Shown here: positions 650 to 36,874 of the stretch, one piece after another
Numbering within the stretch: position 1 is the stretch's first letter
How the letters are laid out: the number at the start of each line of letters is the position of its first letter
From: an uncultured virus (IMG/VR IMGVR_UViG_3300008108_000012)
Taxonomy: Duplodnaviria; Heunggongvirae; Uroviricota; Caudoviricetes
Virus record (IMG/VR): IMGVR_UViG_3300008108_000012
Reading direction: 5' to 3' (one strand)
DNA length: 64,000 nt
Program-made: the position numbers and the translations under genes
The notes under the pieces: model-generated
What the model saw: only the letters and a program-made list of their open reading frames with translations
Told to the model about the DNA's origin: nothing
Database searches by the model: none

Positions 650-835
650 TTAATTTGGAACTTGTAAAGCGTCGCCAGATTTAGCTAAATCGTTGGCAGC
701 AAAGCGCATTCGCCAGTACATGGCGATGTTTTCTGGAGTTTGTTTGACACCATACTTAGACATATCTTCATCTCGTATTGCAGCAAGATAAATCTTTTCA
801 ATGTCATCGGAAAGAATGTTGTTTTCCATCGTCAT
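650..835 (-). CDS. Small hypothetical protein (61 aa) coupled to the 3927-aa polyprotein
   Basis: ATGA overlap at 832-835 with the stop codon of the giant ORF. Confidence 0.65.
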   Translation of the reverse strand: MTMENNILSDDIEKIYLAAIRDEDMSKYGVKQTPENIAMYWRMRFAANDLAKSGDALQVPN

Positions 836-3800
836 GCACCTTTTCTTAAAATGTTTGTGACGTTGCCTGTTGTCATTCTGGCTACGTTCACTCCGTCAGG
901 AATTGGCATTGTGTTGATTATTTCTGCAATTTCTTTATGGGTCAAGTTCGGTCTTGATTTAATCAAACGCTGTACTTCTCTAATTCGTTTGTCAACAAAT
1001 TTTTGTGTCAAGCTTTTTTTAATTTTTCTAGCCGTTTGTTCTTTGTTGGGAAGGCGGTAGCTCTCGAGAATCCCAGCCTTACGCATGCGCGTCAACCGTG
1101 CTGTCCAATCTGTACGGTCCATAAGTATGTCGTACTCGTTCCGTAGCGCCTCTAGGGCGTCGGCGACCTGTAGACCGCGACCGTAAACATCCAGTATGGC
1201 GTCCTGTACGTCTTCCTTGGAGTATCTATCTTTGTCGTAGCGCGTAGCCATACTCCCGGATATTTGACCGCCAGAGTTTTCGGGAAGACGGCGCACAAAC
1301 TGGTTTACGAACCTGGCTCCCTCTTCTGAATACCGCTGCTGCCTTAAATCGACGTTGTAACGCTTAATTGCTTCAGACAGAAGGGTGCTGGCAATGCCCT
1401 TACGTTTTGAATCTGGAGAAATAAAGATGTTTACATTTCCTTTTTTCTCAAGAGGAAGGTCTTGAGGGTAGTGGTAAACAATTCCTTTTAATATTCCTTT
1501 TTCATCTCTCCACAGAAGACAGTCAACCCATTGTCCAGGCTGGAGACCGTTGCCCGTTCCTTTGAAATACGAAAATCCGGGAGGACCTTTTTTGTCAAAC
1601 TGAGAAGCTTGCCCCTTGAATGGCCATGGCTCTCCACCAAGACTTTCTTTTACGTCTTTCCATGGTTTGCCTCTATATTTAGGAGCGTTTCGCATCTCTC
1701 TTCTGCTGTTGAAAGACTCCCAGCCTTCTGCTGGTTGAGTTATTCGACCAGATATTGAGCCACCCATTCTGCCGGAAACGGATACGGGTTCAACAGCACG
1801 TCTGTAGCGAATTCTTGTATCAGGAAGTGTTACGCCATCGTCTTCCCATGCCAATAGCTCTTCGGGGGTAACGCCTTCACCAAACTTGTCTTTGCGCGAC
1901 TTTTTGATAAGCGCCCTAATTTCATCCCGGGTTTTTCTTTCAGAATCGCCTAACTTTCCTCTAAAAATATCGTTTACTGATTCAGAAAGTTTTTTCAGAA
2001 ATTTGTTTTTTGCATCCTCGTCGTACCAATAGTAACCGTTGCGCGGCCAGTGTGATGCTCCAAAGAGTCCTTCTGGGCTGTAATTATCTCCGTACAAAGA
2101 TATTTCTGATATGCCCAATTCTCTGTATATTTCTTCGTTTCGCGCGTTTAGTGCGGTTCCTATACCGAGTCCCTGTTGTTGAAATTTTACTACCATCCCC
2201 TTGTGTTCTGCTTCTGCTGAATTGTCGTCAAAGTACAAAACCCTGTCAAAAGATGCAAGGCTATTGTTATCGTTAAGTTGACTTGGATTGGTCCCTAAAT
2301 GTTTGGGGAAAACCAGTCCAGATATTTCTATGCGCGTTTTGTTTGCTGGGATGGTATAGCCACCCCTGTCATAACCTCCGTCGCCGGTGTTGGTTACCTT
2401 CACGTCTATAGGAATTACATTGAACTCATTGCCTCTGTTTGTTTTTGTTCTGTCTATGTAGTCTTTATTCCCAACTATTACACCGGTAAAAGCTTCCTTC
2501 ATTGCTTTTTTTATTTCGCTGTATTTGCCTTTATTTGCAATAAGCTGTCTTGCTTTTCTGGCTGCAGACCTCTCTCTGCCTGAAATAGCTTGATTTTCTG
2601 CAGATTTCTTTATACCGGCACTTGACATTCTTCCGGATATGTCACCGTTTTGTGCTGCCCAGATAATGATGTCCATCGGGAGCTCTTCATTTTCAAATGC
2701 GTCCATTGCTCCAGGTGTCTTGTTCAAAACATCTTTAACAATTGATTGCTGTGCTGGGGTAAGTGATTTCCATGTTGACTCAAGCGCGTCATCTGATACA
2801 AAGTCATCAATTTTCTTTTCAGGGGAAATCAGAGGTCTTGATGAAGGTTGTACCGGTGGGCGATATTGCATGTTGGGGTCAATTACGCCAGTTGTCACGA
2901 CGTTGAATATTCTGTCTTTTGACATGTCGGAGCTGCTAGCTATATCTTCTATCGACTGGCCGGCATCGAATGACTCTATTGCCTTTCCTTCTGGGCTTTC
3001 TGCCGCATATCGGTTTTGGAACAGACGCGCAGTTGGGCGTCCACCTCGCTTAACTTTCTGAGTAGCTTCATCAAAATCAGCATAGACATATGCGTCTTCA
3101 TGCTTAATTTCAAGAGGGCTTGAAGCTGATGGCTTGGAAGCAAGAAGGCGACGAGACGATATATCTGTCGAATCCCATAGGTAAAATTCGTCTGCTGCTT
3201 TTGCAACAGATGGCATTATTTGCCTATTTCTTCCCATTACAGCGCTGTTGAAGTGTCCAGGAAGGCTACGTGGGTCTGTTAAGGAGCGGCGTTCTAGTGA
3301 TTCCGCAAGCGCATCTGGCGTTGCCGTGTTGTAGTGCATGACAATGTCGTATCCGGCTGACCTGGCTGCTTGCAGAGTTTCAAAACCAGAGTTGTATTGT
3401 CCAGTTGAGTCGTATACAACGTCAAGACCCTGAGATATCGCTTCTTGCAGTGCAAGGTCCGCTATTACACGTGATTCTTCGTGAACAGCATTCGCCCACA
3501 TTGGGTTTCCGGCAGCATGAAGTGCTCTTGCCTCGGGTAGAAGGGTTTTTATTTCATCAGCATCAACATGGAGCGCAAACCCTGGTGTTGGGATATTGTG
3601 AGCGCCGGTTTTTCTGTCTGTAGTCTTGCCTGAACCAGCTGGCCCACCAACTGAAACAAATTTACGCTTTCCTCCAGTAGGGCGTTGTACTCCTGCTACC
3701 AATGCATCAATAATGGGGCGATAAACGTTGTCGTAGCGATACTTGCTGACATTTGACTTTCCGCCAAATGTTGTGGTTACTTCAACAGATGGTTCGCCAA

Positions 3801-6800
3801 TGTTGGCTTTGTAAACATCAAACGTAAGTTTTGGATGCTGTTTCGTAAGTTCAGATTGGTCATATGAACTAGGAAGATTTTGCAATCCAAGACGTTTTTG
3901 AACGCTGTCATCAAGAGGAGGGAACGACGATGACATGCGACCCGATATTGAACCAGGAGAAGAGCTCATTGATGGGCCACGCCCACCACCGGTCATTCTC
4001 CTGATTAGCTCAGCTAGCACTTCTTCGTCAGTTGCATCCGGACCAAGGTCACGCCTAACTTGTTGTTCTACGAAGTAGGCATTAGCAGGGCTACCTGAAG
4101 TTGGATTAAATGGCCCACGAGGTCCAGAAGATGGGCCAGGTCCTCCTTGTCCATCGTCATCAATCTCACCGTCACCACCAAGGTCTCGCGTACCTCTACC
4201 CTCACCCCATAGAGCACTTCCTGCTGGGCGTGATGGCTGTATGCCGTGGCGAGTCCAGTCTGACCATTCGTCAAATTCTTTTTCGACCCATTGGCGTTGC
4301 GGGAACACGGTTGACTGAGTAAACGGAGCGGTAGGCCAGTCGTCTCTATTTGCGTTATGCCGCGGCCATAGGCGACCCTTATCGTCATATAAATATAGGT
4401 CTTGGTCTGTGTATTGACTTACGTCAATGTCATCGTCAGCAATGTCTGTGTTATTTGGTCTCGCCGAAGAAGATTGGCGTGAAGTTCGTCCTGCTCGCCA
4501 TGAATCGTATTGGTTTCTTAACCTGCTATTGCTTAGTGTTTCCCATGCGAATCCAAGTTCTTTGAATTGCTCAGTAGCATCTGGAGAATTGTTAACGTCT
4601 GGGTGAAGCACGCGAGATTTAGCTCTAAAGGCTTTTTTTAGCTCTTCGTCTGTTGCTGTTTCCGAAACTCCAATTATGTCGTATAGGTCTCTAGATTGAG
4701 CCCACTGTCTCGGGTTTGACATTCTCCCGCTAATGGAATTGTTTTCCTCGACAGCATTTAGGAATTCAAACATCTCATTATCGCCAAGCGGCATGTAGAA
4801 GCCGGCATTTATATATGCCTGGCGACCCTTTGGCGTGTTCGTTTTGTATGTTTCCATCAGCTCTGGGATGTTCCTATGGCGCTGCCATTCAGGACTGTCT
4901 GGCTGCCACATTCTCCATGGCCAAGATGCGGATTCAATCATTTCATGCATGTCGAGAGAAAAATCAATCATTTCTCTCTTCATCCACAAATCTTCCATCA
5001 AAGATTTGCGAGCTTTATTCATTGCTCGCTTAGCAATTTCTTCTCTATCTCCTGAAAACCGTGAGCCTGACTTTCGTGCGGCATCCACGACAGCCTCTAG
5101 GACAGATTCATCTATTGTCCTTTTTATGTAAGCACCGAGCGCCGCCATTTTGTCTATGCCTTCTTGCCCTCCAAATACTGGATGCATATAAGCCGACGTA
5201 GATGAAAGATTCTGTATTTGGTCTCTCATTTCCTGGCGAATATCTTTTACTTTTTCGCGCAAAGCAGACATAGGGGATGTCATGTAAGAACGTTTTTCTG
5301 CGTTAAATTTGTTAGCGCTCTTTGCTACGTCTGACATTTTGCCAGATATTGCCCTAGTTGCCTTCGGTGGATTTTTTTCGAACAAGAATGACGGAGAAAT
5401 CCACTCTTTAGGTATCGCCTTATATATGTTGGCGTCAAAGTTTCTTGAAAGAGGAGAAACTCCGGATTCCATATGCATTTTACGCATTGCCGAGTTATAC
5501 ATGCGTATTGCAGCTTTCTTCGGCATGTTTGTTCTTTCGGAGAATTGGAATATATTTTCTCCGTCCGACAAGCGACGCATCATTTGAATTTCACCAGCGT
5601 TCAATGCTGAACCAAACTGCGAAATTGATTGTTTGATTGCTGCTCTCTCTAGAGGAGCATTTGAATTTTTCCATCTGGCGTATCGCTTTACTATGCCATC
5701 GACCATTTTTTCGGTCATGCCAAGGTCTTCTGCTATGCGGTTTAGTGGCTGCTTGCCATGAACATAACGCATAAAAATATCTTGTTCTGCAAATAAGGAT
5801 TCTGGATTTGAAGACCATGCACCGGCAGACTTAAACATTTTCGGGTTGCGAGCTTTTAGGTTGTCTATTATCGATGCTTCTACTTCCCCGTATCGCTCCA
5901 CCGACATACCCATAAATTTTGCTACAGAGGCACGCGATGCTCCATGTAGTCGCTGCACCATCGCCGCTTTTTCTGCTCCAGAAATAAAAGAATCATTCAT
6001 AATTGCTTTGCGCAATGCTGCATTTATGGCCGGCTCTCTATTGCCGATTGAAGACTCTACTTTTACAACAACATCCATTGCTTCCGTAAAAGATATTTTG
6101 TTCTTTTTTGCCAAGTCTCTAATTGAGCCTCCGCTGGATATCATCTCGTCAAACATTTTTCGCTCTGAAGCTGAAACATTGTCTGAAGTTTTAGACAACT
6201 GTATTCCGCTATAGAGAACGTAACGATTTATATCCTCTTCACTGACGCCATTTTCTTGGCGCAGCTTATTTTTTATTTCGTCAGACGACATGCCTCTTAA
6301 GTGCATGTCGTTCATGTTGTTTTCAAACCCTTCACCCATGCGTCCAGATATTGACGGACCAAAATTTGAACCAACTCTGGATAGACGGTTTTCACGGGTT
6401 CTTTCTACGTCCGCGGCAATAGATTCTGGAGTTACCTCTCTGCCCATTAGCCTCATGCGGGATATTGAGCCGAGCCTCATCATGTCGTCTGATGGAGCTA
6501 GTTCCCAAGCGGAATATGAACCAAGGTTTTTTTCGTCAAAAAGTTTTATCTTGTCGGCTTTTGCTCTGCCTTTATTCAGTTCTTTGCGCCAGCTGTTTGA
6601 AATTTCAATTAGTTCTTTATTCCTAGCACGCGTTGCTCTTTCAACACGGTCTAAACCTGTTCTTAAACTTTCGTAGTCAGGACCATAGTTTGCCGGGTCA
6701 TCAACTTCCAGAGCCATAGCGTTCTTAATCCACGCGACATGTCCGAACCCGATTGGAAGTTTTCCGTCCGCTATATCCTGAACAGGGAACCATTGCGCTC

Positions 6801-9800
6801 TCAGCGCGTCATCTCCAGCCTTAAAGGCAGCGTCTGGAGATACAAACAACGCAGTACCACTGACCTCTACGCCTTTTGTAAAGCGCACATCCCAGTCTGG
6901 TGCTGTTATTGTTCCTATCTGCTTAACGCGCGCATCTGTCGGACTTACTTTTAGTCCTACTTCCTCTTCTAGTTCACGCAATGCTGTCTCTAGTGCGGTT
7001 TCGCCAGGGTCAGCAAACCCTCCAGGGAGAACCCATGCACCGGTATCGTCTTTGTGTGGACCGAACGCTCTTTGTATAAGAAGAACCATTAGCGCCCCCG
7101 TATCAGGGTCGCGACTAAATATTGCCGTATCTGACGCTTTCTGTGGGACGCCCTTATCAAGGTCTAGTGCATATTGGTTAATTTTGCCTTCAATAGTGTC
7201 GTAAACAGTGCTGCGTATGTCGCTTATCTTGTGTGAGTCCAGCGTCATAAAATCACGCAATTCATTACTCACGCCGTTAGCAATTAGCTCCTGAATCTCA
7301 GGCATTTGCTCCCATGGACGAGGATAATTTTTAGATATAACGCTTGTTTCTGCGCCCTTGGCTTTTTCACTGGCCAATAAACCTAATTCATCTGATTTGA
7401 AAGGTCCGTCGATAACATTTTTTGTATCTGCATCTACAAGATAAAGACCTTCTACTGGCTTAAAAACGCTGTCTTTCAGAGTTATTTGTTCAAGCTTGTA
7501 GTTCTGCTTTTTCTTGCCCCTGAAAGGCGAGGTCATCCGGAAACTATTTCTAGCTGTTAAATATTCTCGCTGCCATCTCTCAGGGTTGTATCTTGCAACT
7601 CTGCTAGCGTTGCTTAGCGTTCTCCTCAATCCCATCTGACCAGAAATCGTTGGTCGCGTTGCATCCATAGACGAACGGAATGCATTTATTATTGCTTCGT
7701 CTGGGGAGACGGTGGAAGCACCGCGTGTTCTGTTCGGCAGCGGTGCAGTCACATCTTTTGATACGGCAACGACAAAGTCTGGATTTGAGTAGAGGGCTCT
7801 AAAGTAGTCTTTCTCCACCGGTGATAGATGTTTAAAGTAGTCAACGTTCTCGGGGTTCATTAATGCAGCAAATGAATGCTCATTAGATGCTCCAAGGAAC
7901 TTCCCACTTCCTCCAGAAAATGCCGTCCTCATTGCTCTTGTAATTGGCATTTCGTCAGAATCGTAGCCAAGCAGCATTGATGAAGGTTTGTTTTTGCGGC
8001 GTCCCGAAACAAGTACGCGAGCTGCTTTCCGTGAATATTCATCGTAAAGGTTCGGCCCACCGCTTCGCATGAAGCCAGATATTCCCATGCCTCGACCCTC
8101 TTGCCGCGCCCCCTCTATGGTTCTTTTTACTTCACGAAGCTGCTGGACTCGAGAATCTGCTGTTCTTGTTGCATACGCAGTTGTTCCAGCAAGACCTTCG
8201 TTTCCGTATTTACGTGCGTGAAGCTGATGAGCCTTTAGTGTTCCCTGCAGCGGACCTACATATTCGCGAGTAATTTCACCATTTTCGTTTCGCTCGATGT
8301 AACCCCAGTTTTGTCTCCACCAGCGATATATGCGGTTAGCATGGCGTGCCCGACTTATTTGTGTTGGGTCATAACCTTCATCAAACGCCTGAGGCCATCC
8401 CCTCGTGTCGTCGTCAGTTACTTCGCCAGTGTATGGCTCCTGATAGAGGGCTTTTGCTCTACGGCTTGGGCTGTCAGTTATGGTCCCATCTGGTTCCATA
8501 AATATTGCGCGACGAGCGGTTGGAACAGGATATGACTCAGCAAGGTCAAGAGCGGCTTTTCTTAACCGAGCATCATGTCCGCGTTCAATTCTGTATGCCT
8601 GGTCAGCAAACCATTTCTTTCTTTCTGTTTCTTCAATCAGACCATCAATAGAGCTAATGATTTGTTGTGGGCTTTGGCCGCTAAATAGACGGGTTAGGTC
8701 GTCACGCAAGCGCTCAAGCTGGCTTCTCCTAAACGCCTCTTGACGCGCTGTATCAGAATTGAAAGCCTGGTCTGCTGCATTGAGAAGTTTTGTTACATCT
8801 GAAGTTTTGATGTTGTTATCTATTGCGTACTGTGTTGCTGCAGCTTTAACCAAGTCACGCAAATCAATTGGCTGAGGAGGCCTATTTGTGTCCGGCTGGT
8901 CTGCACCAAAAATAATCAGTTCATGGCTTATTTCTTGCGGAGTTCTTCCTGATTGAAGAAGGTTCCAAACCTGCTCTCGAGCTTTGCGAGAATCTTGTCC
9001 AGTTCCCGTAACGTAAAGCTCGCGGGCTTCCTTTGCAGCCTCTACAAACTGGTTCTGTAGCTGTAGTGCACCCCAGTCGTCATAAACACCAAGTGCTGGG
9101 TCATACTGGCGACTTGCAGTTGCATAAGAGCCTTTTGACGATGCTTGTTTTCCTTGTTTATTTAGAATTCGCTGGAACATGCGCAATGCAGAGTCCCAGT
9201 TGATGTTCCTTGGTATAAAAGGTATGCCCTTGCGAAGTCTTGGTCCGCCCGGGTCGGAAAGTCCAACTCCATCACCTTGTATTCCACCAAGGTTTGGTGT
9301 TGGCATCTGTCCTGAGCTTGATGGGGTCGGCGGCATTGTTCCCATTGCTTGTCCGACAAAATAATCAATTAATTCGGGCGGGAGGTCAATGTATCTTTGG
9401 TCGATATGACCGTTGTGTGGGTCTGTCCACTCACTTGGCTTTAGTATTTCGAGAAGGTCAGCTTGAAACTGTTTCGGCGCATACTTGAGAATCAATTCTT
9501 CTAGTTCGTCAAGTGGGATTAGGGTTACGCCGTCGTCTTCGACGTTGTCCGGGTGTTGAGCCCACGTTGCTGGGTCGTCGGTTACGCCAAGCTCTTCGGG
9601 GGAACCGTGTTCTGTGTTCCATACCCAATCTTCATCGAGAACACCAAACTCATCACGTATTGGGCGCTCAGGCTGCGGTTCTTCAAACTCTTCGTCTTCT
9701 TCTGGCTCTTGAATCCATCCTGCCTCAAGACCAACCTGTGTCCATTGCTGATACTCTGCATTCAAAGCGTCTATGGCGTCTTTAGCTTCTAGTTCTCCGC

Positions 9801-16642: not shown

Positions 16643-16644
16643 AT

Positions 16645-27067: not shown

Positions 27068-27093
27068 TAGGTATCCTTGCGGCAGGGCTAATT

Positions 27094-27417
27094 CTAGAAC
27101 AGATAATCTGTCGTAGTTCTTATTGTATCTAATGCGCGACTCACTTTGAGGTTGTATGGGTTTTCATCCTCGCTAACCCTCCATTGCGGTGGCATAAAGC
27201 GGGAAACCCACTCCGCATTTGAGACATTTCTTGACCAGAGCATTTTCTGTGTTTTGGTTATTGTTAGTTCTTCTAAATCTGGTCTTTTGTCAACAAAATC
27301 CCAAAAACTGATTTCAGTCATTCTGTTTCTGGTTTGATAAATGCCGTCTGTCTTGCCGCCTATGACAAAGTAGAGCTTGCCTCCGTCTCCAGTTTTCCCA
27401 ACCAATACCTTTTTCAT
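27094..27417 (-). CDS. Small hypothetical protein (107 aa) coupled to the 1723-aa protein
   Basis: ATGA overlap at 27414-27417. Confidence 0.7.
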   Translation of the reverse strand: MKKVLVGKTGDGGKLYFVIGGKTDGIYQTRNRMTEISFWDFVDKRPDLEELTITKTQKMLWSRNVSNAEWVSRFMPPQWRVSEDENPYNLKVSRALDTIRTTTDYLF

Positions 27418-30400
27418 GCTGTCGCCTTAGCTAGCTGGTCTTTGATTGACCACATGATTCTTTGCCGCATACGCGCCTCCGCAACGTCTTCCATTGACTT
27501 GTCTTTCATGTCCTGAATCCAGCTGTCTGGGTTAAAGAAGTCCACGCCCGTATCGTTGCGGACTGTCATTTTTGCTCCAGCAGCCTCAAGTTGTTTGCGG
27601 ATTTTTTCTGCCGCAAGGAGTCGGGCTAAATTAACATTAGAACCAACGGACAATAATTTTTTATTGGCTATTTCTCTAGCTATAATTTCGGCATCTTCGG
27701 CGCTTACACCGGCGTTGTCAACCCAATACTGAGATTCTTTCATTTTTGAAAAAGAAGGTATGGTTGCGTCCGTGTCGTATCCCCTTGCAATTCTGTCTTC
27801 GTTTCTTTGCCCAGGCAACGATTCTGACTCAAAAAGCACCTCAACAGGGATTACCTCTGGAGAAGGGATTATTACTTCCTCTATGTCGGCAGCATCAAAT
27901 CCCCCAACAACGAGGGCTTCATAATACTCTTTTGATGGGCTGTTTGCTTCATAGCGCCTAGAAGAATAGTCACCCTTCCATTTCCCATGAAGCAAATCGA
28001 GCATATTTTCTACCGGTGTTGTTCCACCAAAAATAATCGACCGAGCAACTTCGTCTGGGTCGACCGACTCGACGCTGGCAGGGGTAAACCTAGTTCTCAG
28101 TGAATCACCATATCCATAAAAAGTTCTTCCGCTAGTTTCTGGGCGTAATATAACTTCAGCTCCGCCGTATACATGAACAGGACCGCGCATTGTTTCCGCA
28201 TTTCCTCGGGAAGTGAATTCAGGTAAATTGACTTCAGGGTCAGCGCCGGGGACTAGCTGTACCAAATCTGCTGCAGCTTTGTCTTCTGCGTTGAGCCAAT
28301 CTGTATGAACTATATAACCAGAAGCTGGCCTCATTGTGTCAGGGACGTCGGGGTGTATGCCTATTTCTGCTTCATAGACTTTTCTCATTGGACTATTGCT
28401 GTGGTCACTATCGACCTGATGGGTTGTCTTGTAGCCATTCTGAATAATGCGCGTCAAGTCCCCTTGCCATACCTGAATATGCGGGCGAGGGTCTATTCCG
28501 GCGTGAAACTCTGATATGGCATCAATTACTTCTTGCTCAAGTTCATCTTCAGACATTTCTGCTATGTGTGCCATGAAGTCAAGCTCAACGCCTCTTAAGT
28601 ACGGCGACATAACTGTTTGCTGTGGGTCTCTACCTTCTCCACCTATTGCATCTTGCAATGCTTTAGCAAACCATTGAATTCCACTTCTAGTCCTTTGACG
28701 GGCTTCTGATTTAGTCAATGGCTTACGAGCAAGGATTTCGCTTTGATTTAGCTTTGATTCAATTTCAGGCCAGGAATCAATGTACTCATCCGACATTGCT
28801 GCACCAACAGAGCTTTTCGTCGAGGCAAGCATCTCTTTAACCTGCACTGTTTTTGCCAAAGATGCTCGTTGAGGATTTCCCATCCTGCCAGATATTTGCT
28901 GGCTTGTCTCCATGGTTATCGAAGAAACAGGGCTACCGACATGAAATTTGTTGTCTTTGTTGTTCCACTCAATTGGCTTTAAACCGCTCTGCGGTTCTCT
29001 GCTGATACGAACTGCTGGTATTTTTTCTTCCTGAACCGTGCCACCTGCTTTTTTATATGCAGTATCGAAGTCGTCTCCCTCGCGGCGGAATGACATGAAC
29101 TTTGCACTGTCCAAATCTGTGTCGTCGTATCGCCTACCAACTAGGTCCCCATCTTTATCGATGATTGCGCCTCTTTGACCCTGCGCCATAATCAAATAAG
29201 CATCATCAGCGTCGACAAATACTGTGTTGTCATATGTTGACTCTATGTCGGTGTCTTCGATTGTGGTTCCGAGCATTGCGCTCTTTTTTCTGCGGAATGT
29301 TCCATCTTGCTGGCGCGTATATACAGAACCGTTTGCTGTCTCGAACTGGGAAGCACCCATGCGTCCTGAGATTAACTGGTCGTATTCGGCTTTTTTCTTT
29401 GAGTAATCCGCCATGTCTCTGTCGTACTGGGCACGGCGCTCCTGAACAATTAGCGGCACTTGGTCAACGTCGAGTATGCGTCTTGGTGTGTCTGGCCTTG
29501 ATGCGGCTCTATCTAGCATTCTTTCAATAATCATTGCTGACGCTTCAGAGTCAGCATCGGCTGTGTGCCAACCATCTCCCAGGTCAACTTCCAAGTATTC
29601 TGCTAAAGGACCAAGGCTATTAGAACCTTTTTTAGCACCAGTTTTTGGGTCAATCATTGTTGGACCATCTGGGTTTTCCGGTGTCCATCGTGGCAGTATT
29701 TCGTCGGCCATTGCCTTTGAGTCGATAACCCCAGCCGGTTTGTACTCCAGGCCAACCTGCCCAAGTATTCGTTCTAAAACTTCTAGGTCGAATGGAGTGT
29801 ATTGACCTCCCAGTAAAGCATCTTCACCAAAAAACTCTAATAGCTTTTCGTGAGATTCTTTTAGTGATGCTTTTGAAGCAAGCCATTCATCAGTCAATGG
29901 TTGCCCCTTGTCGTCTTTAAGATTCTTCTTGGCCCAATCACCCAGCGGTATTCCAGGGTTTACAAAGACATTGAAACGCTCAACAACTTTCCCATTCTTC
30001 ATTTTTACTGCGCCAATTTGCACTGGCATGTTGCCGTCATCACCAAACCCGGTGGTCTCATAATCAAAGAAAACAACTTCTTGGTCGCGGTATTTTTTTG
30101 CAAATTGTTTCCACGTAGATGAACCACGGAGTACATCCAGGAATTTTCCAGTAAATGGTCCGTTGTCTGGTTCGCGAGGACGCTGTGGTTTTACTGGGTC
30201 TGGGTTTCCCATCCGACCACTTATTCCATAGCTGACGCTGGGTTGCTTTTTGCCACGTGTAGTGCGTATGTTGTTGGAGCGAACAGCAGTTCTTACTCTT
30301 TGAGCATGAAGTGATGGTGGTCTGCTCGAAGGGCCTTGGATGTTCCCCATTCGACCACTGATGTTCCATTGATTTGGGGCTACACCAAAAACATCCTGCC

Positions 30401-32585
30401 CCAGTTTGTTCAGTCTTGCCAACGTATCCGCGGCAACGTTTCTTTCAAAGTCTTCAATAATGCTTTGCGGTATGGCTTGCCCTGGTGGTAATTGCTGAAT
30501 GATTTGATACAAAGCTCCACCAGGCTCTAACGCTCTCTGTCTTTCCTGTGTTGCCCATGCATCCAAGAAATGAGTGAGCAGGTTGTTGCTCTGATTCTTT
30601 CTAGCGGAAGTTGTTCGCAAGTCAATATCGCTTGGAGTCGCGTCAAATGGACCGCTCTGCAATTGGTCTTTGAAAGGGTTGAAACCAGGTGTTGCTGATT
30701 GCGCTCCTCTTAGTTCTCCAAATAAACGCCTATAGACAAAATACTCAGCTCTTGTCTCTACACCGGAGTCTGTCGCATATGCGCCACCAACGAGCGCAGC
30801 CATAAGTGGCAAGTCGCTTGGGTCGTGGTTTATGTTGTTTTGAAAGCCCCAAACAAGGTTTGCATAAAAAGCATTCATGTCATCTTGTAGGTCTATTTTT
30901 CGGCCACTAAAACGTGAACCGGTATACTGGGTGCCCTTTAGTCGTGCAGCAGCTTGAATCATGTCATCTATGAACGGGTTGTTCATAGGATTCGACACTT
31001 GTGACCAGTCAATTATCCACGCGCCGTTATATTTGTCTTGCTGAACAGAGGGACCAGCACCTGGTACGTTAACGACTCTTTGTGGAGCCGTATATCTTTG
31101 CATAGCATTAGGGTCTAATCCAAAAGCCTTCAGTTTTTGATAGAAGTCGACAACGTGGCCTGTTTCATGAACAGCGATGTAATGCATCCTGCCCTCGCGG
31201 CTATCCCACCACCCAGAGCCGTCGCTGTCCATATTGCGCCCAACATTATTGGCTTGCTGCCACATGCCAAATGGGCTTATTTTGAACCTTACGTGAGCGC
31301 CACCTTCTGCCATAAGGCCAGCTTGTCTAGCCATTTGTATGGCACCAACACCAGCCAGTCTTCCTCCGCTTTGAGGACTAGGGGAAAACGGGTCAACCTG
31401 GATTTCTACAGCAGTGTTAATGTCATCCATCATCTCAAATGTTGTGATGATTTTGTAAGCGTCTGGCTGTTCGGTCATCTGCTGAATTGTTGCTTGCCAA
31501 AAAGCTTCGAACATTCTCACGTACGCTCTGCGGTCGTTAAGACTCAAAACACCAGGAATTGCATTGTCGAAGTATTCAGAAAATTCATTGGGGTCAACAT
31601 TGGGCATGAATTCTTCCATTGCCCTCATGAAGTCAGCCTTATTTAGAACATCTCCAATTGGTTGACCTGCAAACCGTGAGCCAGGGGGGTAAACGATTGC
31701 CTCTGAAGCTTGCGCACTTGTCGAGTATCGTCTTTTTAATTCAGCCGCAGCGCGCGTTAGGTCCTTACCTCTTGCTATCGCTTCTCTTTTGCCGATGTAG
31801 TAAATGGGCATACCGGTTTTGGATGCCCCTCCCGTTCCTCGTGTTTGTCTCAAGCTTGGAGATGCTCCGCCTAGCATCGCCATTCTTCCGCCAATGTCCA
31901 TTCCTGCCTGAAGCATCGCCAAGTCTGAAGGAGAATATCTTGCTGCAGCATTAGAGCGACCAGATGGACTGCGGTCAACACGTTGCCCCATGCCCGCTGC
32001 CATTTGTTCTGCTGTACCAAATGCTCTTCTTGCTGCCCGAGCACCACTTTGCGCTGCGGCAGACGGCGAAGGTATAAAGCAGTTACTTCCGGTTATGTCT
32101 GTAAATTGGTTGGCAGCTGGTGTTCCTTCTGGACAACGCAATTTATTTTTGTCATCTACCCACAACCCTCTAGACCTAGCAACCATTGCCAGAAGAGAAG
32201 AAAGACCACGACTCAGTTTTGGCCCAAGGTTTTTAACCTCTAAAAACTCTTCTTCAATACTTTTTTTATTAGGTTTATAAGCTTTTTTAGTTGTTTCAGG
32301 GTTGTCTATGTAATAGTCCGACCCAGTAACCATTGGGTTATTGCTTAGGTGGCATAGCTTGATAATTTTTCCAGGTGGGAAAAACGGCAATGGGTCTGAC
32401 GGCTCCCAGTCAATTAAAAACTGCTCGTATTCAGACTGAGCCTTAGACGGCTTCTCTGGTTTATCTTCTTTTTTGACTTCATCGTCTGTATTTTTTTTAG
32501 AAGATGAAGAAGGAGCCGTGCTTAGTTTTGCATCTTTAGAAGATGCCATTCCTAGCAGTTTGTTTTTTAGTACATCATCCTGCAC
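27414..32585 (-). CDS. Multidomain protein, 1723 aa: RCP..FT..C module, zincin metallopeptidase, DEDDh 3'-5' exonuclease, unknown segment, DUF3626-like domain
   Basis: HETGH (31155-31169) with downstream YAT...VETRAE; FFDYETTG...PFDLEVL...WHTADAD; RPASGY..VYG..GDSL..YYEALV; five ISGRM-type linkers. Confidence 0.85.
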   Translation of the reverse strand: MQDDVLKNKLLGMASSKDAKLSTAPSSSSKKNTDDEVKKEDKPEKPSKAQSEYEQFLIDWEPSDPLPFFPPGKIIKLCHLSNNPMVTGSDYYIDNPETTKKAYKPNKKSIEEEFLEVKNLGPKLSRGLSSLLAMVARSRGLWVDDKNKLRCPEGTPAANQFTDITGSNCFIPSPSAAAQSGARAARRAFGTAEQMAAGMGQRVDRSPSGRSNAAARYSPSDLAMLQAGMDIGGRMAMLGGASPSLRQTRGTGGASKTGMPIYYIGKREAIARGKDLTRAAAELKRRYSTSAQASEAIVYPPGSRFAGQPIGDVLNKADFMRAMEEFMPNVDPNEFSEYFDNAIPGVLSLNDRRAYVRMFEAFWQATIQQMTEQPDAYKIITTFEMMDDINTAVEIQVDPFSPSPQSGGRLAGVGAIQMARQAGLMAEGGAHVRFKISPFGMWQQANNVGRNMDSDGSGWWDSREGRMHYIAVHETGHVVDFYQKLKAFGLDPNAMQRYTAPQRVVNVPGAGPSVQQDKYNGAWIIDWSQVSNPMNNPFIDDMIQAAARLKGTQYTGSRFSGRKIDLQDDMNAFYANLVWGFQNNINHDPSDLPLMAALVGGAYATDSGVETRAEYFVYRRLFGELRGAQSATPGFNPFKDQLQSGPFDATPSDIDLRTTSARKNQSNNLLTHFLDAWATQERQRALEPGGALYQIIQQLPPGQAIPQSIIEDFERNVAADTLARLNKLGQDVFGVAPNQWNISGRMGNIQGPSSRPPSLHAQRVRTAVRSNNIRTTRGKKQPSVSYGISGRMGNPDPVKPQRPREPDNGPFTGKFLDVLRGSSTWKQFAKKYRDQEVVFFDYETTGFGDDGNMPVQIGAVKMKNGKVVERFNVFVNPGIPLGDWAKKNLKDDKGQPLTDEWLASKASLKESHEKLLEFFGEDALLGGQYTPFDLEVLERILGQVGLEYKPAGVIDSKAMADEILPRWTPENPDGPTMIDPKTGAKKGSNSLGPLAEYLEVDLGDGWHTADADSEASAMIIERMLDRAASRPDTPRRILDVDQVPLIVQERRAQYDRDMADYSKKKAEYDQLISGRMGASQFETANGSVYTRQQDGTFRRKKSAMLGTTIEDTDIESTYDNTVFVDADDAYLIMAQGQRGAIIDKDGDLVGRRYDDTDLDSAKFMSFRREGDDFDTAYKKAGGTVQEEKIPAVRISREPQSGLKPIEWNNKDNKFHVGSPVSSITMETSQQISGRMGNPQRASLAKTVQVKEMLASTKSSVGAAMSDEYIDSWPEIESKLNQSEILARKPLTKSEARQRTRSGIQWFAKALQDAIGGEGRDPQQTVMSPYLRGVELDFMAHIAEMSEDELEQEVIDAISEFHAGIDPRPHIQVWQGDLTRIIQNGYKTTHQVDSDHSNSPMRKVYEAEIGIHPDVPDTMRPASGYIVHTDWLNAEDKAAADLVQLVPGADPEVNLPEFTSRGNAETMRGPVHVYGGAEVILRPETSGRTFYGYGDSLRTRFTPASVESVDPDEVARSIIFGGTTPVENMLDLLHGKWKGDYSSRRYEANSPSKEYYEALVVGGFDAADIEEVIIPSPEVIPVEVLFESESLPGQRNEDRIARGYDTDATIPSFSKMKESQYWVDNAGVSAEDAEIIAREIANKKLLSVGSNVNLARLLAAEKIRKQLEAAGAKMTVRNDTGVDFFNPDSWIQDMKDKSMEDVAEARMRQRIMWSIKDQLAKATA

Positions 32586-32605
32586 TGGAGTACCACCAGT
32601 GCTTG

Positions 32606-32857: not shown

Positions 32858-32859
32858 TA

Positions 32860-34311
32860 CTACTCCGATTCTGTTTCTGTATCTTCGGCGACGGTGAGCA
32901 TTTCAAATTCCATCAGCGTTGATAAGAAATTGTCATCTGCTGACTTTTCTCCAGCCTTTGCTTTTTCAATGTCTTCCTTTGAAACCCATGAAACTGGAAT
33001 CAAGTCTTCTTTACCAAGAGCAACTGCACGCTTCATGATGTGCGCTTTGGCTGCTGTTTTATCTTTTGCTCGGCCGTAAGCCTGAATTGCGTTGCGAAGG
33101 TCAGCTTCGTCGGCGATTGGGTAAGAGCCATCAGGAAGGGCTTGACCCTTGTCTGACATTGCCTTACGAGTGTCCTCGCTGTAAGCACGCTTCAGAGCAA
33201 TCTCGGCAGCTTCTGCTTCAATCTCTGTTGCTTCTTCCATTGTGTACTCGTCGTAACCAAGAACTTCACCATCGAGTGAAACGAAGACGTCGTAGGACTT
33301 GCCGTTAATGCCGTCAATCTCCACTGCGTAAACGTCGTATCCTTCGAATACGTCTGGTTCAACAGCAACGATGTCACCAGTGACTGTCTTTACCGCAATG
33401 TCAGCAGCATCGCCAAAGCTAATCATTGCTTTATTTACAAGCGCAGACTTTACTTCAACTAAATCGCTGTTCAAAAGGTGCCATCCCATAACTTCGCCAG
33501 ATGAACCATCGAAGAAAATCTCTACTGGCTTGCCATCTTTTCTTTCAATGTCAACCACAAATAGGTCTGCTTCGTCGGAGTAGCCAGAGTCAAGAACTTT
33601 ACCCTTGAACATGTCTTCTGCCATTCCTTCAACTTCAAGAAGAGAAGGCATTCCATCTTCTGGAACACATCCACCAGGGCATGAATCACAAACAGGAGAA
33701 CCGCCTGGGTAAACCTTGCGGTCGAAAGAGCAAAGGAATGCATCTTTATCAAATTCGGATGACTTGTATCCCATGCTGCCAAGACGACGATTTCTCATCT
33801 TTTGGCGAGAGGCCATCATGGAGTCTTCCATGTCGTCCTCTTCTTCCATCATGTCTTCTTCCATGTCAGCATCTTCCATGGCAACAACATTACGCTTGCG
33901 CTTTGGTGCCGCACGGCGGACGTACATTTCTGATTCATCATCATCAAGGTCGTCGTAACCCATCATCTTGCCGTCTTCGGTATCCATCATGTCGTCTTCG
34001 TCGTCCATCATGTCGTCTTCTTCCATGCCTTCCATGCCAACAAGGTCATCGTCCTCTTCGTCGTCAAGACTTGGGGGACCCATTGGGCGAGGCTTTTTGC
34101 GCATTGGTGTAGCGACTGGCATGCCAGCAGGTCCGCCACCCATGCCCATCATTCCTCCAATTGAAGCTGACTTCATTTGCTGTGCGACAGCGCCGCACTT
34201 ACCGCATACCTTTGCTCCAGGTGTGTAGCCACACTCGCCAGAGTCCATGCCCTTGGCACACTGAACCACTTCACCGTCAGCGTCAAGCTTTACTACTGGT
34301 GTCTCAGCCAT
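32860..34311 (-). CDS. Acidic head-operon protein (~483 aa): Cys clusters, Asp/Glu/Met-rich tract, two PepSY-like repeats, C-terminal DUF6582-like domain; possible scaffold or core protein
   Basis: Start moved to ATG 34311 (AGGAG RBS; TAATG overlap with the upstream stop). ISFGDAADIAVKTVTGDIVAVE..YAVEI..YDVFVSLDGEVL is PepSY-like; KGQALPDGSYPIADEADLRNAIQAYGRA is DUF6582-like. Confidence 0.75.
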   Translation of the reverse strand: MAETPVVKLDADGEVVQCAKGMDSGECGYTPGAKVCGKCGAVAQQMKSASIGGMMGMGGGPAGMPVATPMRKKPRPMGPPSLDDEEDDDLVGMEGMEEDDMMDDEDDMMDTEDGKMMGYDDLDDDESEMYVRRAAPKRKRNVVAMEDADMEEDMMEEEDDMEDSMMASRQKMRNRRLGSMGYKSSEFDKDAFLCSFDRKVYPGGSPVCDSCPGGCVPEDGMPSLLEVEGMAEDMFKGKVLDSGYSDEADLFVVDIERKDGKPVEIFFDGSSGEVMGWHLLNSDLVEVKSALVNKAMISFGDAADIAVKTVTGDIVAVEPDVFEGYDVYAVEIDGINGKSYDVFVSLDGEVLGYDEYTMEEATEIEAEAAEIALKRAYSEDTRKAMSDKGQALPDGSYPIADEADLRNAIQAYGRAKDKTAAKAHIMKRAVALGKEDLIPVSWVSKEDIEKAKAGEKSADDNFLSTLMEFEMLTVAEDTETESE

Positions 34312-34514
34312 TACTTCATCTCCTTGTACTGCATCGAATTTGATAAACAACCTTTAGGGTTGACGCATCCTCCACAAGGAAGAGCGCGTTTATCGCCCGT
34401 GACCATGCAGTGATACTTGTACGATTTTTTTTGATTGTCTACAGGTTTAGAATAACCTATTTGCGGTTTATTCTGGCTGACGTTCTTCTTCGGACGAGAG
34501 AATCTGGAAGACAT
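34311..34514 (-). CDS. Small Cys-rich protein (67 aa)
   Basis: Packed between the protease and the 483-aa gene; YHCMVTGDKRALPCGGCVNPKGCL four-Cys cluster. Confidence 0.6.
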   Translation of the reverse strand: MSSRFSRPKKNVSQNKPQIGYSKPVDNQKKSYKYHCMVTGDKRALPCGGCVNPKGCLSNSMQYKEMK

Positions 34515-34516
34515 TT

Positions 34517-36874
34517 CTACCAGCCTCTAACGACGTTGCTCATTGCGTCCAGTGCTGCCACTGTCAACTTTGAAGCCTCGAATATTTTCAGACCAGAGTC
34601 CACGGCGACAACACTAATTCGATGATAGTCCGCTACGGGGTCAATAAGTGACTTGAATTCGTAGATGTACTCAACTGGCATCTCAAGCAGCAACGAGTCA
34701 ATGTCACGACTATTGACATTTTGTGCACTTTTTATATTGATGTCGTGATTTTCCGAAACAGTCATATAGACGGCATACGTGTCTGCTTTGCCTCGTGAAG
34801 CCATGTACTGGCGGCGGAGCAGCTCCATCATCTGTTTACGTATTTCTTCTCTGCGACGCTGTCCTGCTGGGACCGCAGGGCGCTGTGGCTGCGGAACCGA
34901 TGGGGCTGGTGCTGGAGTCGGTCTAGATGGAGTTCTGTCCGGATTTGGTTTAGGAATACGAGTTGGCTCTGGTACTGGTATCTCTTCCGGAATCTCGATT
35001 GGCTCATCGGTACGCGGCATTCGTGGCATCATGTCACGTCTACCAGCAGGGACTGCAGGACGCTGCGGTTGAGGAACAGAGGGTGCTGGGGCCGGCGCTG
35101 GCCTAGAAGGCGTTCTGTCTGGATTTGGCTTAGGGATACGAGTTGGTTCTGGGACCGGGATTTCTTCAGGTATCTCGATTGGCTCGTCAGTCCTTGGCAT
35201 TCTTGGCTTGTATGGAATATTGTCCCTACCGTCTCGGCCGGTCATGAAACCGTCACCATCTCCGTCAAACACAGAAGGTTTTACAAGTTTTCTTGCTCTT
35301 TTTGCTGTTGACCTAGCACTCCTGCCAAAAGCAAACTTTTCTGCAATCCCATCCATTGCCGTGACAAGTGCATCTGATGCGCCCTCGCCATACCAGTCAA
35401 TGTTTGGCACAGCAAAGCCGTCGGACAGAAGCTCAACATCAAACCCGTGATGAAACCCTATTTCCTGAGCGGCTTGATACATGTCCATATCCGCTGTCTT
35501 GATAAACAAGTGCACGCCAGGATTATCAGACTTAAAGTCGTTCCATGATTTCATCTGATTTGTCGAGCAAGAGCCGCCACAAGAACCACCACATTGGCAT
35601 TCTGATTTTGCGCCCCCGCAGGAGCCTCCACAACCACAGCCATGCGGCTTTGATGGCAAATCTATGCCAGACACCCTGCTACCCATTGACCCGTCAACGG
35701 GAATGTATACAACCTCTTGACGCACTTTGGTTGCTGGGCCAAACATGAAGTCCACCTCATTGGGGGTGTGGTAACTGGCCCTAAGGGTTTCTGTTGCTCC
35801 GTCTTTAGCGAGGTCGAATACCACCATGTTTTCGTCGGCGCTTCGTATGACGACTTCGCCACCGAAATGCATTCCTATGCCTCGTGCAAGTCCGCCCATT
35901 CTCCCGGAAGATGGATTTGACATTCCTGCGGCCTGTGGTGCGTAAATCAACGCATGGTTTTTTGAATCAACATCGGCGTCAAGCGATTTTTCTTTCGAGT
36001 TTTCGTATCTTTCCAGAAGGCGACGACCCTTTGCTGCAAGAGCAGCGGCGTCAGACCTATCTTGCGGCACAGGCTCACCCCATGCTGCCGCAGATAGAGC
36101 CAGTCTCGTTGGCTTGCCTTTGTCGTCTTTCATTGGGCCAGAAGGGTTTGTAAAGAATCTCGTCAGGAACGAACCTTTGCGTCTCATCTTCTCAGGAGTG
36201 TTGGCTGGGCCTTTTACTCCTGGTTTCAGGTTTGCACCTTCCGTGCGCTTAAAGTGTGCTCGACCAGCAGCAGTCAGTCCACCACTGGGGTCCTTTAATT
36301 TTGAACCTTTTTCTGAATAATTATCCTTCTGGTTCTCAGACTTAATCGACAGCGTTGCAGTTAGCTGGTTTGCTCCGTGGAGTACTGGAGACACCTCATA
36401 GAGTTCTACTTCTTTTAGAAGGTTTGCCTGCTGGCCATTGTCATATACTGCGTCAAGGGTTTTGTAGCCTATTGACCACTCTTGCTCAAGACCAAAAAAA
36501 GCTACGTTGGCAAATGCTTCTTTGCCTTTTTCTGCACCAAGATTAAACTGCACTTTGGCAAATAGGCCGCCAACACCCCTCTGCTTCATCTTCTGAGGGA
36601 GGCGCGGGTCGTTTGGCCCGACCTCATATATTTCAAGAACCTTGCCGATTGGCTCATTCCAGTTATGTCCCCATACGACACGAGGCTTCCGTCGCTTAAG
36701 GCTTTCGGTAAAACATCCTGGTAGACAAATGTCGCCGACACTGTCCTTGTTTCCCAAAGCGGCAACGAAGCACTCAACAACGCCCTTAGCCTCGTTTACA
36801 TTTATTTGACCTGAAAGTGACTTGTAGTTAGTTTCAGTAAAGTCACGACTTTCAGTAAAGTTGCTGAAGTGCAT
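34517..36874 (-). CDS. HK97-family prohead (maturation) protease with long C-terminal extension (DUF6321-like domain, Cys/Gly tract, Pro-rich tandem repeat)
   Basis: GNKDSVGD...VVWGHNWNEPIGK...EWSIGY...LYEVSPVLHGAN carries the His/Ser catalytic motifs of peptidase S78; directly downstream of the portal. Confidence 0.92.
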   Translation of the reverse strand: MHFSNFTESRDFTETNYKSLSGQINVNEAKGVVECFVAALGNKDSVGDICLPGCFTESLKRRKPRVVWGHNWNEPIGKVLEIYEVGPNDPRLPQKMKQRGVGGLFAKVQFNLGAEKGKEAFANVAFFGLEQEWSIGYKTLDAVYDNGQQANLLKEVELYEVSPVLHGANQLTATLSIKSENQKDNYSEKGSKLKDPSGGLTAAGRAHFKRTEGANLKPGVKGPANTPEKMRRKGSFLTRFFTNPSGPMKDDKGKPTRLALSAAAWGEPVPQDRSDAAALAAKGRRLLERYENSKEKSLDADVDSKNHALIYAPQAAGMSNPSSGRMGGLARGIGMHFGGEVVIRSADENMVVFDLAKDGATETLRASYHTPNEVDFMFGPATKVRQEVVYIPVDGSMGSRVSGIDLPSKPHGCGCGGSCGGAKSECQCGGSCGGSCSTNQMKSWNDFKSDNPGVHLFIKTADMDMYQAAQEIGFHHGFDVELLSDGFAVPNIDWYGEGASDALVTAMDGIAEKFAFGRSARSTAKRARKLVKPSVFDGDGDGFMTGRDGRDNIPYKPRMPRTDEPIEIPEEIPVPEPTRIPKPNPDRTPSRPAPAPAPSVPQPQRPAVPAGRRDMMPRMPRTDEPIEIPEEIPVPEPTRIPKPNPDRTPSRPTPAPAPSVPQPQRPAVPAGQRRREEIRKQMMELLRRQYMASRGKADTYAVYMTVSENHDINIKSAQNVNSRDIDSLLLEMPVEYIYEFKSLIDPVADYHRISVVAVDSGLKIFEASKLTVAALDAMSNVVRGW
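34862..35206 (-). repeat. Two copies of a 55-codon Pro-rich unit (period 180 nt) inside the protease gene
   Basis: PRMPRTDEPIEIPEEIPVPEPTRIPKPNPDRTPSRP(A/T)PAPAPSVPQPQRPAVPAG at 35042-35206 and 34862-35026. Confidence 0.95.

Follow-up and report, generated by a model that had tools for sequence, protein, structure and literature searches.

Why should the giant proteins encoded among the head genes of a tailed phage repeat one short peptide between otherwise unrelated modules? The question is raised by the uncultured virus IMGVR_UViG_3300008108_000012 (Caudoviricetes), of which a stretch of 64,000 nucleotides, hereafter the window, was analysed; it corresponds, on the reverse strand, to bases 3442-67441 of a virus record that consists of one contig of 105,678 bp. 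Plus-strand genes for TerL, tail sheath, tail chaperone and baseplate wedge identify a contractile-tailed phage, and the minus strand carries a head module in the order portal-MuF, S78 prohead protease, seven genes and major capsid gene. The seven in-between genes encode, in order, a 496-residue protein, F (1723 residues), a 214-residue protein, a 686-residue protein, C (2450), B (1267) and A (3927); as the major capsid gene could be placed at the left edge of the window, all giant genes lie between the protease and capsid genes. The repeated peptide is ISGRM. The reading favoured here, to which we assign roughly an even chance, is that it marks linkers of capsid-loaded polyvalent cargo polyproteins that would be cut by the phage's own S78 prohead protease, most likely after the methionine.

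Motif, module borders and dialects

An earlier note on this DNA, made from the letters alone, had listed 24 exact or variant copies of ISGRM in head genes, and all 24 translate, in the frame of the gene named, to the pentapeptide named. The exact form occurs 12 times, as counted there (six copies in A, one in B, one in C and four in F), where the composition of the four giants (9367 residues) leads one to expect 0.006 and 300 shuffles gave a mean of 0.007 and a maximum of 1; it is the most frequent 5-mer in 29 translated open reading frames (ORFs) of at least 150 residues. A six-frame scan of the full 105,678-bp genome returned 16 matches to [IV]SG[RK]M, 15 of them in the four giant ORFs and the sixteenth in a 63-codon frame antisense to the tail-chaperone gene. 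The 19 plus-strand ORFs, terminase, replication and tail genes among them, contain none, in agreement with the reported absence from tail genes. One further site, ISGSM in the 686-residue protein, was added to the list. The proposed conservation at the peptide level is equally evident: serine is encoded by TCC, TCA, TCT, TCG, AGC and AGT, arginine by CGC, CGA, CGG, AGA and AGG, isoleucine by ATT, ATA and ATC, and the glycine codons also vary freely. Since this variety spans codon families (TCN vs AGY, CGN vs AGR), the motif is conserved as a peptide. Doubled motifs had been noticed at some junctions, and two are present in A, ISGRMGGISGRM and VSGRMGGSISGRI.

The sites fall between domains, as first proposed: no Pfam envelope is crossed by any of them, and an overlay on AlphaFold models agrees. 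Polyprotein A is divided into three unknown segments, a NUDIX, a helix-turn-helix (HTH), an unknown, a J-domain, a zeta-type kinase, two weak GNAT and one further unknown segment, together with three short spacers. Pfam places NUDIX (residues 1831-1950) inside the segment 1661-2092 and Zeta_toxin (2979-3134) inside 2894-3329, and DnaJ (2643-2704) begins 12 residues past a site; RNase_T (838-1018) lies inside segment 792-1075 of F, and DUF3626 (1023-1202) inside segment 739-1267 of B. Among the domain calls made from the letters, those of NUDIX, DnaJ, Zeta_toxin, RNase_T, the HTH of A residues 2093-2426 and the S78 protease were recovered by Pfam, and the two GNATs were recovered weakly, below the cut-off; an HTH in A residues 3789-3927 and a DUF3626-like module in the 1723-residue protein were not. 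All eight sites covered by the AlphaFold models of F and A lie in low-confidence linker segments. In the model of F residues 680-1723 (11-row alignment, mean predicted local distance difference test (pLDDT) score 64.6) all four sites are in coil with pLDDT below 50, a level that applies to 24% of residues, the low-confidence coil segments being model residues 50-120, 390-440 and 543-588. In the model of A residues 2380-3420 (seven rows, mean pLDDT 55.9) all four Met-containing sites lie in segments below 50, a weak test because 48% of this model is below 50; it is more telling that sites at 511-515 and 947-951 flank a confident kinase fold (model residues 521-945) and that a site at 249-253 precedes the J-domain (from residue 261).

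A wider view is offered by 285 IMG/VR relatives that matched the protease protein; 80 loci were kept, and complete protease-to-capsid regions were compared for five relatives, G001-G005. Head gene order and sizes are alike in all five. The alignments show the pieces between motifs to be evolutionary modules. The 284-residue exonuclease module recurs at other positions (middle or C-terminus) of relatives' proteins as a motif-bounded unit of similar length, with alignments reaching to within a few residues of both its ends, and a motif or variant stands within about 20 residues upstream of it in nine of ten non-redundant relatives (IVGKM in L052; none in L040). BLAST alignments between A and G002 start exactly at motifs, the J-domain at 2628 against 2510 and the acetyltransferase-like module at 3621 against 2687, and the kinase and acetyltransferase-like modules come in a different order in the two.

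The junction peptide of the relatives is [ILV]-[ST]-G-x-M, with two sub-lineages using G-P-[VI]-G-x-M or P-T-A-[SA]-M, and the family motif can be written as [ILV/P]-[ST/V]-[G/A]-x-Met-small. It occurs in genome-specific dialects (ISGRM, ITGAM, LSGSM, GPVGxM), the consensus being ISGRM in this phage and G001, ITGAM in G002, [IV][STV]G[RKA]M in G003 and P[VI]GxM in G004. Enrichment over shuffled controls, which the earlier note expected in the genome and its relatives, was found throughout: with 200 shuffles per genome, the generalised motif was observed in cargo ORFs 18 times against a shuffle mean of 0.85 in this phage, 18 against 0.90 in G001, 13 against 0.70 in G002, 11 against 0.70 in G003, 8 against 0.84 in G004 (eight sites of its protease-fused polyprotein left out) and 14 against 0.74 in G005. 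At positions 1, 2 and 4 the residues are homogeneous inside each genome and change from one genome to another: none of 5000 permutations attained the observed value at any of the three, and 125 of 5000 did so at position 6 (the close relative G001 was omitted from this test). The family as a whole retains Gly/Ala at position 3, Met at 5 and a small residue at 6; the first two were demanded by the search pattern, and Met is invariant in looser listings too. Position 4 is R/K in near kin only; it is A in G002, S in L021/L046, and elsewhere among relatives also F, Y, Q, E, G or P. Single genomes can mix these residues, as L058 does with A, R, A, F, K and Y. That dialects follow protease similarity rests on average-linkage clustering of protease identities rather than on a supported tree. 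Homogeneity of the dialects within genomes, combined with codon variation, suggests that the peptide is read by something the genome itself encodes.

Unfused lineages (L024, L036, L042/43 and L045/48) carry the core of the module, that is the protease, the protein of about 500 residues, the N-terminal part of F, the 686-residue protein and the N-terminal part of C, as separate genes of at most 950 residues, and from these the motif is wholly absent.

Scissile bond and enzyme

From what was observed directly here, namely the motif, its restriction to head genes, its placement between modules and its dialects across the family, we infer packaging, cleavage, enzyme, scissile bond and ejection in the following form. 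All seven in-between genes would code for proteins of the capsid interior, four of these being giant cargo chains of unrelated enzymes and DNA-binding modules with disordered linkers at the joints. The linker peptide would be [I/L/V or P]-[S/T/V]-[G/A]-x-Met-[G/S/A], in this phage ISGRM-[G/S]. The polyproteins would enter the procapsid as single chains by way of their conserved N-terminal parts, and the S78 (HK97 gp4-type) protease would then cut each linker, most likely after the invariant Met (P3 small, P2 any, P1 Met, P1' small). It would also free itself at SSGRM↓G and trim the capsid delta domain near GANM, and the approximately 25 released modules would remain in the head to be ejected with the DNA.

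The assignment to the S78 protease is supported, at the level of sequence, by the copy of the motif past the protease, by the G/A-x-M elements at the capsid junction and by protease-fused polyproteins. The protease protein has Pfam matches to Peptidase_S78 (43.9 bits, cut-off 21) and DUF6321 (1.2e-29), and its H70 and S134, which we take from HK97 to be the catalytic pair, are invariant in 23 family sequences. The post-protease site is conserved as [AIST][STM]G[RK]MG in five of six genomes, G004 having VVGRA. A motif-punctuated polyprotein begins with the protease itself in the lineages of G004, L040 and L065. The capsid protein has a delta-like N-terminus of about 127 residues with SIGQM (residues 104-108) and GANM (124-127) at the delta/mature junction, and G/A-x-M elements are found there in six of six genomes (SIGQM in five, GANM in all six).

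As to the bond, the earlier note had placed the cut at ISG(R/K)↓M, defined by the basic residue, by analogy with HK97. HK97 gp4 cuts after Lys. Position 4, unconserved and mixed within genomes, cannot be the defining P1 residue, and Met is kept; the analogy also does not account for the motif, as there is no basic P1 family-wide and the seven [ILV]KS tripeptides in about 12,000 residues of head proteins are at chance level. The prohead proteases T4 gp21 and phiKZ gp175 use the sites L/I-x-E and S/A/G-x-E. The account available for SPN3US gp245 gives a measured cut behind A-x-E, P4 being V and P1' S (PMC10052503). The small-x-Met-small shape matches this A-x-E↓S site, so a cut after Met by the S78 protease is favoured. 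The note's broader proposal of cargo polyproteins is thus partly supported: its R/K-defined cut is lost, and the head-module location, module borders, enrichment in relatives, the site past the protease domain and the absence from unfused relatives speak for it in silico.

Several observations weigh against cleavage of these linkers by the S78 protease. Some giant proteins have few or no sites: C contains an uncut stretch of 1580 residues, and proteins of 1469-2108 residues in G002, G004 and G005 have none. The strict motif scores 0 in the cultured phages DalanDe and Gilgamesh, no cultured relative with the motif was found, and the generalised motif is not enriched in either phage despite shared portal, protease and capsid genes and giant head genes. 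The motif regex also yields false positives, such as ITGYM of relatives inside a folded strand. In G002 the post-protease site is ISGRM while the cargo dialect is ITGAM. The S78 domain is almost invariant between dialects, with just two columns (E14/A and F105/Y) splitting the R/K from the S/A group, and thus gives no sign of a co-evolving pocket. At the capsid junction the residue after the site is I/V/P or F and not a small one; such elements also occur in motif-less DalanDe (RATM, LGEM) and may therefore be structural. Finally, SIKS is found family-wide directly after the protease domain, aligned to SVKS of DalanDe, and EIKS occurs four times in the capsid delta domain of this Gordonia phage; SIKS, SVKS and EIKS suggest by their sequence an ancestral Lys-P1 specificity rather than Met. 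A complex prediction of the protease domain (23-row alignment) with a 60-residue linker segment of F scored 0.00, evidence neither way.

In the protease domain alignment, Glu14 and Phe105 are present in all eight R/K-dialect genomes, and Ala and Tyr in most S/A-dialect genomes. The pattern may reflect phylogeny rather than specificity, and as candidate co-varying pocket residues the two columns are too little to interpret.

The most serious competitor is possible but appreciably less probable. It keeps the cargo system and has the linkers cut before Met (x↓M) by the zincin-like metallopeptidase module of F (HETGH at residue 473), in the head or after ejection. Zincins and thermolysin-type enzymes usually select a hydrophobic P1' residue, and an invariant Met after a variable residue would fit a P1'-driven enzyme. 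HExGH is conserved in the F homologues of this phage, G001, G002, G003, G005 and most motif-bearing loci, with HEFFH in L039/L046 and HEFGH in the positionally equivalent 1759-residue ORF of G004; unlike the S78 domain, the zincin region is diverged (33-35% identity between this phage and G002, G003 and G005), which leaves room for co-evolution with the dialects. Autoprocessing by embedded metallopeptidases (MPTases) is also proposed in the available text of Iyer et al. 2017 (PMC5512222). The zincin named by the earlier note is thus backed by conservation in relatives and not by Pfam; as the module has no Pfam or PDB sequence match, its assignment as a peptidase rests on one short motif, HExGH. 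Motif-less L043 and L045 also have HExxH in the equivalent protein, and presence or absence of the two enzymes was rejected as a way to tell S78 from zincin. Cutting ahead of assembly would moreover lose the downstream modules, and the motif also stands past the S78 domain and at the capsid delta junction, both classic S78 substrates.

It is improbable that the motif stays uncut and serves as a docking or hinge element, tethering linkers to scaffold, capsid inner surface or chaperone while the giants act intact. The N4 virion RNA polymerase is indeed packaged unprocessed, according to the text of Iyer et al. available to us (PMC5512222), and the motif always lies in disordered segments, as short linear motifs do. 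But the doubling of copies at a distance of 7-8 residues (ISGRMGGISGRM) and the presence of a site at every border are easier to reconcile with excision than with docking, the copy past the protease domain speaks against docking, unfused relatives drop the motif though their proteins would still need to dock, and the shape of the motif parallels known prohead-protease sites.

Very unlikely, lastly, are cleavage by a host protease after injection and use of the Met codons as internal translation starts that make the modules separately: every site ends in ATG, and Shine-Dalgarno cores are rare both at true gene starts (2/9) and at motif Met codons (3/19), so that this comparison does not discriminate against internal starts, but the three residues before Met are kept as amino acids across codon families (TCN vs AGY, CGN vs AGR), which a start signal would not need, genome-specific dialects argue for a phage-encoded and not a host reader, and separately translated modules would have no route into the capsid.

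Other features of the head module

Table 1. Positions of the head-module genes, junction sites and other genes (window coordinates unless stated otherwise).
Feature	Position	Strand	Support or remark
Portal with C-terminal MuF-like domain, 762 aa	36965..39253	-	Pfam Phage_portal 1.9e-50, Phage_Mu_F 4e-07; phrog_2662 6e-100
Prohead protease protein, 785 aa: S78 domain aa 30-175, DUF6321 aa 194-265, SSGRM aa 322, 460-aa extension	34517..36874	-	
SSGRM past protease and DUF6321 domains	35897..35911	-	
496-aa acidic protein, candidate scaffold or internal protein; candidate site RLGSM↓G aa ~188-193	32860..34350	-	translation
Polyprotein F, 1723 aa: conserved N-terminal domain, zincin-like module (HETGH aa 473), 46-aa spacer, DnaQ-like exonuclease (aa 792-1075), 159-aa module, 489-aa module	27414..32585	-	
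IGGRM, F aa 231, degenerate site	31881..31895	-	L012, L058 and L021 have the full motif at the equivalent place
ISGRM, F aa 742	30348..30362	-	positionally conserved 'WN-ISGRM' site
ISGRM, F aa 788	30210..30224	-	N-terminal border of exonuclease module
ISGRM, F aa 1072	29358..29372	-	C-terminal border of exonuclease module
ISGRM, F aa 1231	28881..28895	-	
214-aa protein	26423..27067	-	homologue fused inside protease protein of relatives
686-aa conserved core head-module protein, with ISGSM aa 562 (24748-24762)	24385..26445	-	
Protein C, 2450 aa: conserved N-terminal ~217 aa, single ISGRM aa 867 (21771-21785), then 1580 aa without motif or recognisable family	17031..24383	-	
Polyprotein B, 1267 aa: N-terminal conserved box ending VAGRM (16319-16333), ISGRM (15815-15829), ISGKM (14426-14440), C-terminal DUF3626 module	12839..16642	-	
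Polyprotein A, 3927 aa, 14 segments	832..12615	-	
Doubled site ISGRMGGISGRM, A aa 596-607	10795..10830	-	
ISGFM, A aa 1512	8068..8082	-	
ISGQM, A aa 1657	7633..7647	-	
ISGRM, A aa 2089	6337..6351	-	
ISGKM, A aa 2423	5335..5349	-	
ISGRM, A aa 2628	4720..4734	-	12 residues upstream of J-domain; aligned to ITGAM at G002 aa 2510
ISGRM, A aa 2890	3934..3948	-	N-terminal border of zeta-kinase module
ISGRM, A aa 3326	2626..2640	-	C-terminal border of zeta-kinase module
Doubled site VSGRMGGSISGRI, A aa 3613-3625, second copy without Met	1741..1779	-	aligned to ITGSM at G002 aa 2687
ISGSM, A aa 3785	1249..1263	-	
Major capsid gene, 5' part (447 aa in all, past left edge; genome 66936-68279)	3..506	-	phrog_10 8e-57
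WhiB-like, ribonucleotide reductase, PAPS-reductase-like and two ParB-like genes	rest-of-genome pieces L085 2208-2774 (-), L084 15305-17230 (+), L085 6050-7201 (+), L084 5270-6022 (+); window 44671-45210 (+)		

The N-terminal parts of F (residues about 101-173) and C (1-217) are conserved, and each is joined to variable downstream modules, a layout that by its sequence resembles an anchor-plus-cargo design. A box of about 45 residues, NPxTARDADxDxxVLEGxPTINxGRGxxDPTPGG, is common to the N-terminal regions of A (residues about 294-350, 11566-11736, minus strand) and B (about 56-105, 16328-16477, minus strand), and is present in three G004 polyproteins and several protease-fused relatives; a jackhmmer search did not recover it from G002, G003 or G005. 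It runs straight into the junction motif in B (VAGRM), the G001 homologue of B (ISGRM) and the 870-residue protein of G004 (PVGQM), and it may be a capsid-targeting or propeptide element.

Several modules gave few or no matches. PDB sequence searches returned nothing usable for A residues 607-1515, C residues 1-870 or the zincin module (F residues 235-745), which has no Pfam match either, and the first module of F had no tblastn match in 50,697 phage records. For C residues 871-2450 (17034-21773, minus strand) there is no junction motif, no Pfam, PHROG or PDB sequence match and no usable ESM Atlas match; the C homologues of G002, G004 and G005 (1469-2108 residues) are also without the motif, and this part of C may be a large single-function virion protein. 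The exonuclease module of F is DnaQ/epsilon-like, with a template modelling (TM) score of about 0.8 to Pol III epsilon in Foldseek. The DUF3626-like module called in F was rejected: it has no Pfam match, its BLASTP comparison with the DUF3626 module of B gave an E-value of 0.78, and the Pfam DUF3626 domain sits in B.

Of the smaller proteins, the 496-residue one has a weak Pfam match to PepSY and homologues in every relative, its RLG[ST]MG being present in three of six genomes. The 214-residue protein, a free domain here, is 50-59% identical to a segment fused within the protease protein of relatives (residues about 445-690 of L024, L036, L043 and L045). The extension of the protease protein contains two tandem proline-rich units of about 60 residues (MPRTDEPIEIPEEIPVPEPTRIPKPNPDRTPSRP) at residues about 558-680 (34835-35203, minus strand), and upstream of them a Cys/Gly-rich patch, CGCGGSCGG…CQCGGSCGGSC (residues 412-437), conserved in relatives.

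The capsid protein is 48% identical, over nearly its full length, to the annotated capsid protein of DalanDe. Its ORF has a strong ribosome-binding site, the only strong Shine-Dalgarno sequence seen in the operon, and an internal ATG of the gene yields a misleading 321-residue ORF. Among the head-module gene starts (832-39253, minus strand), just two of nine have a 4-nucleotide Shine-Dalgarno-like core within 20 nucleotides. Several genes abut or overlap (24383/24385; 26423-26445), a hint of translational coupling or of wrongly called starts in some cases.

In DalanDe (21477-22847; 16425-21326) EIKS stands at capsid delta residues 20, 37, 55 and 134, and SVKS, EIKS and ELKS just past the protease domain. 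From the residues alone this resembles a Lys↓Ser cleavage code of the HK97 kind, here in a cultured and tractable phage. The DalanDe protease forms the C-terminal part of a 1633-residue protein. Streptomyces phage Gilgamesh (4979-18853) encodes a hypothetical protein of 4624 residues between a portal-MuF fusion and the protease gene, a position that matches the cargo genes here, and simple k-mer counting showed no over-represented junction peptide in it.

Elsewhere the genome encodes a WhiB-like regulator, a ribonucleotide reductase, a PAPS-reductase-like protein and two ParB-like proteins. The WhiB-like gene hints, by its presumed family, at an actinobacterial host; a host search against genome contigs gave two contigs of one 'Gammaproteobacteria' metagenome-assembled genome and a 34-residue match, and was uninformative.

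Known systems and meaning for the lineage

The concept as such is already known, both from polyvalent proteins and from the protease motifs of T4, phiKZ and SPN3US. The latter phages, as far as the available accounts describe them, have a phage-encoded maturation protease and one short consensus (small-x-P1↓small) in capsid protein, protease and later-ejected internal proteins; the present phage also encodes a prohead protease and may have a like consensus. Theirs are T4 gp21-type enzymes that cut after Glu, and nearly all sites trim N-terminal propeptides of single-function proteins. Here, by contrast, the protease is of HK97 gp4 type (S78), the Met is invariant, the sites lie between at least 20 unrelated modules, and release rather than trimming is predicted. 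Regarding the sharing of one consensus, the site is strong in the cargo and present past the protease domain, and the capsid junction has only the core G/A-x-M with a non-small residue next.

With HK97 gp4/gp5 the phage has in common the S78 family and the N-terminal delta-like domain of the capsid protein; the Lys-type site (EIKS) is visible in DalanDe but at chance level here. Herpesvirus assemblin (V/L/I-x-A↓S) shares the fold class of the prohead proteases. As in assemblin and in retroviral and RNA-virus polyproteins, a single chain is predicted here to be taken up by the particle, whose own protease then cuts it at a short consensus; unlike them, this is a double-stranded DNA tailed phage, its cargo consists of accessory enzymes and not replication proteins, and there is no sequence relation. 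In the MuF-toxin polymorphic systems attributed to Jamet et al. 2017, MuF is said to stand at the N-terminus of a variable toxin or cargo protein; here it is fused instead to the C-terminus of the portal (residues 671-757) and not to the cargo proteins.

Polyvalent proteins, in the available text of Iyer, Burroughs, Anand, de Souza and Aravind 2017 (PMC5512222), combine 2-15 unrelated conflict-type domains, are encoded beside virion genes and are predicted to be packaged and injected; release was predicted to involve embedded peptidases, including MPTase and assemblin-like ones, with RNA-virus polyproteins as the analogy. The present proteins are likewise multi-domain (NUDIX, HTH, DnaJ, Zeta_toxin and weak GNAT in A; HExGH and RNase_T in F; DUF3626 in B) and belong to a phage with portal and terminase whose cargo genes lie among virion genes, with TerL, tail sheath and baseplate in the window. 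Their packaging and delivery with the DNA are predicted here from gene position and synteny. That text describes no recurrent junction cleavage peptide, and its supplements may list such architectures; its assemblin-like peptidases are at C-termini, whereas the protease here is a separate gene and N-terminal in some relatives. Giant genes are also reported for Microbacterium phages of cluster EK, such as Burro gp27 (Jacobs-Sera et al. 2020, PMC7302621), where genes over 13 kb encode virion-associated proteins of more than 4400 residues with few recognisable domains that are 'likely processed'. As far as that account is available, no processing motif or protease is assigned in it, and the likeness drawn here is by description.

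No description of the ISGRM motif was found in the literature, a whole-word search included. If the S78 protease is its reader, a Met-P1 specificity would be involved that was not found described for prohead proteases, and the idea of a prohead-protease consensus would extend from propeptide trimming to enzyme release, and to the HK97-type family with a Met-centred specificity. The hypothesis of polyvalent proteins from 2017 would thereby acquire a concrete processing signal, and the genome dialects would be a natural experiment on the co-evolution of protease and substrate.

For the lineage of uncultured myoviruses as a whole (the 285 IMG/VR relatives), a more far-reaching picture may be drawn, tentatively and at somewhat less than an even chance. 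These phages would follow a Gag-Pol-like strategy in which a few polyproteins bring more than 1 MDa of accessory enzymes per set into the capsid and are then cut, according to a Met-centred code, [ILV/P]-[ST]-G-x-M↓small, into about 25 free effectors; the code would have drifted into dialects together with its reader and would be the joint for module exchange between phages. The zeta-type kinase, Nudix, J-domain, DnaQ-like exonuclease, HTHs and weak acetyltransferase-like matches suggest a multi-pronged payload for host take-over or anti-defence. If the linkers are cut, the motif becomes a parsing rule for the true borders of dozens of unknown modules, many without a Pfam, PDB or Atlas match, and labels these modules as virion-delivered early effectors; with the S78 protease as the reader, such a sequence rule would split hundreds of orphan domains of phage dark matter into discrete injected proteins.

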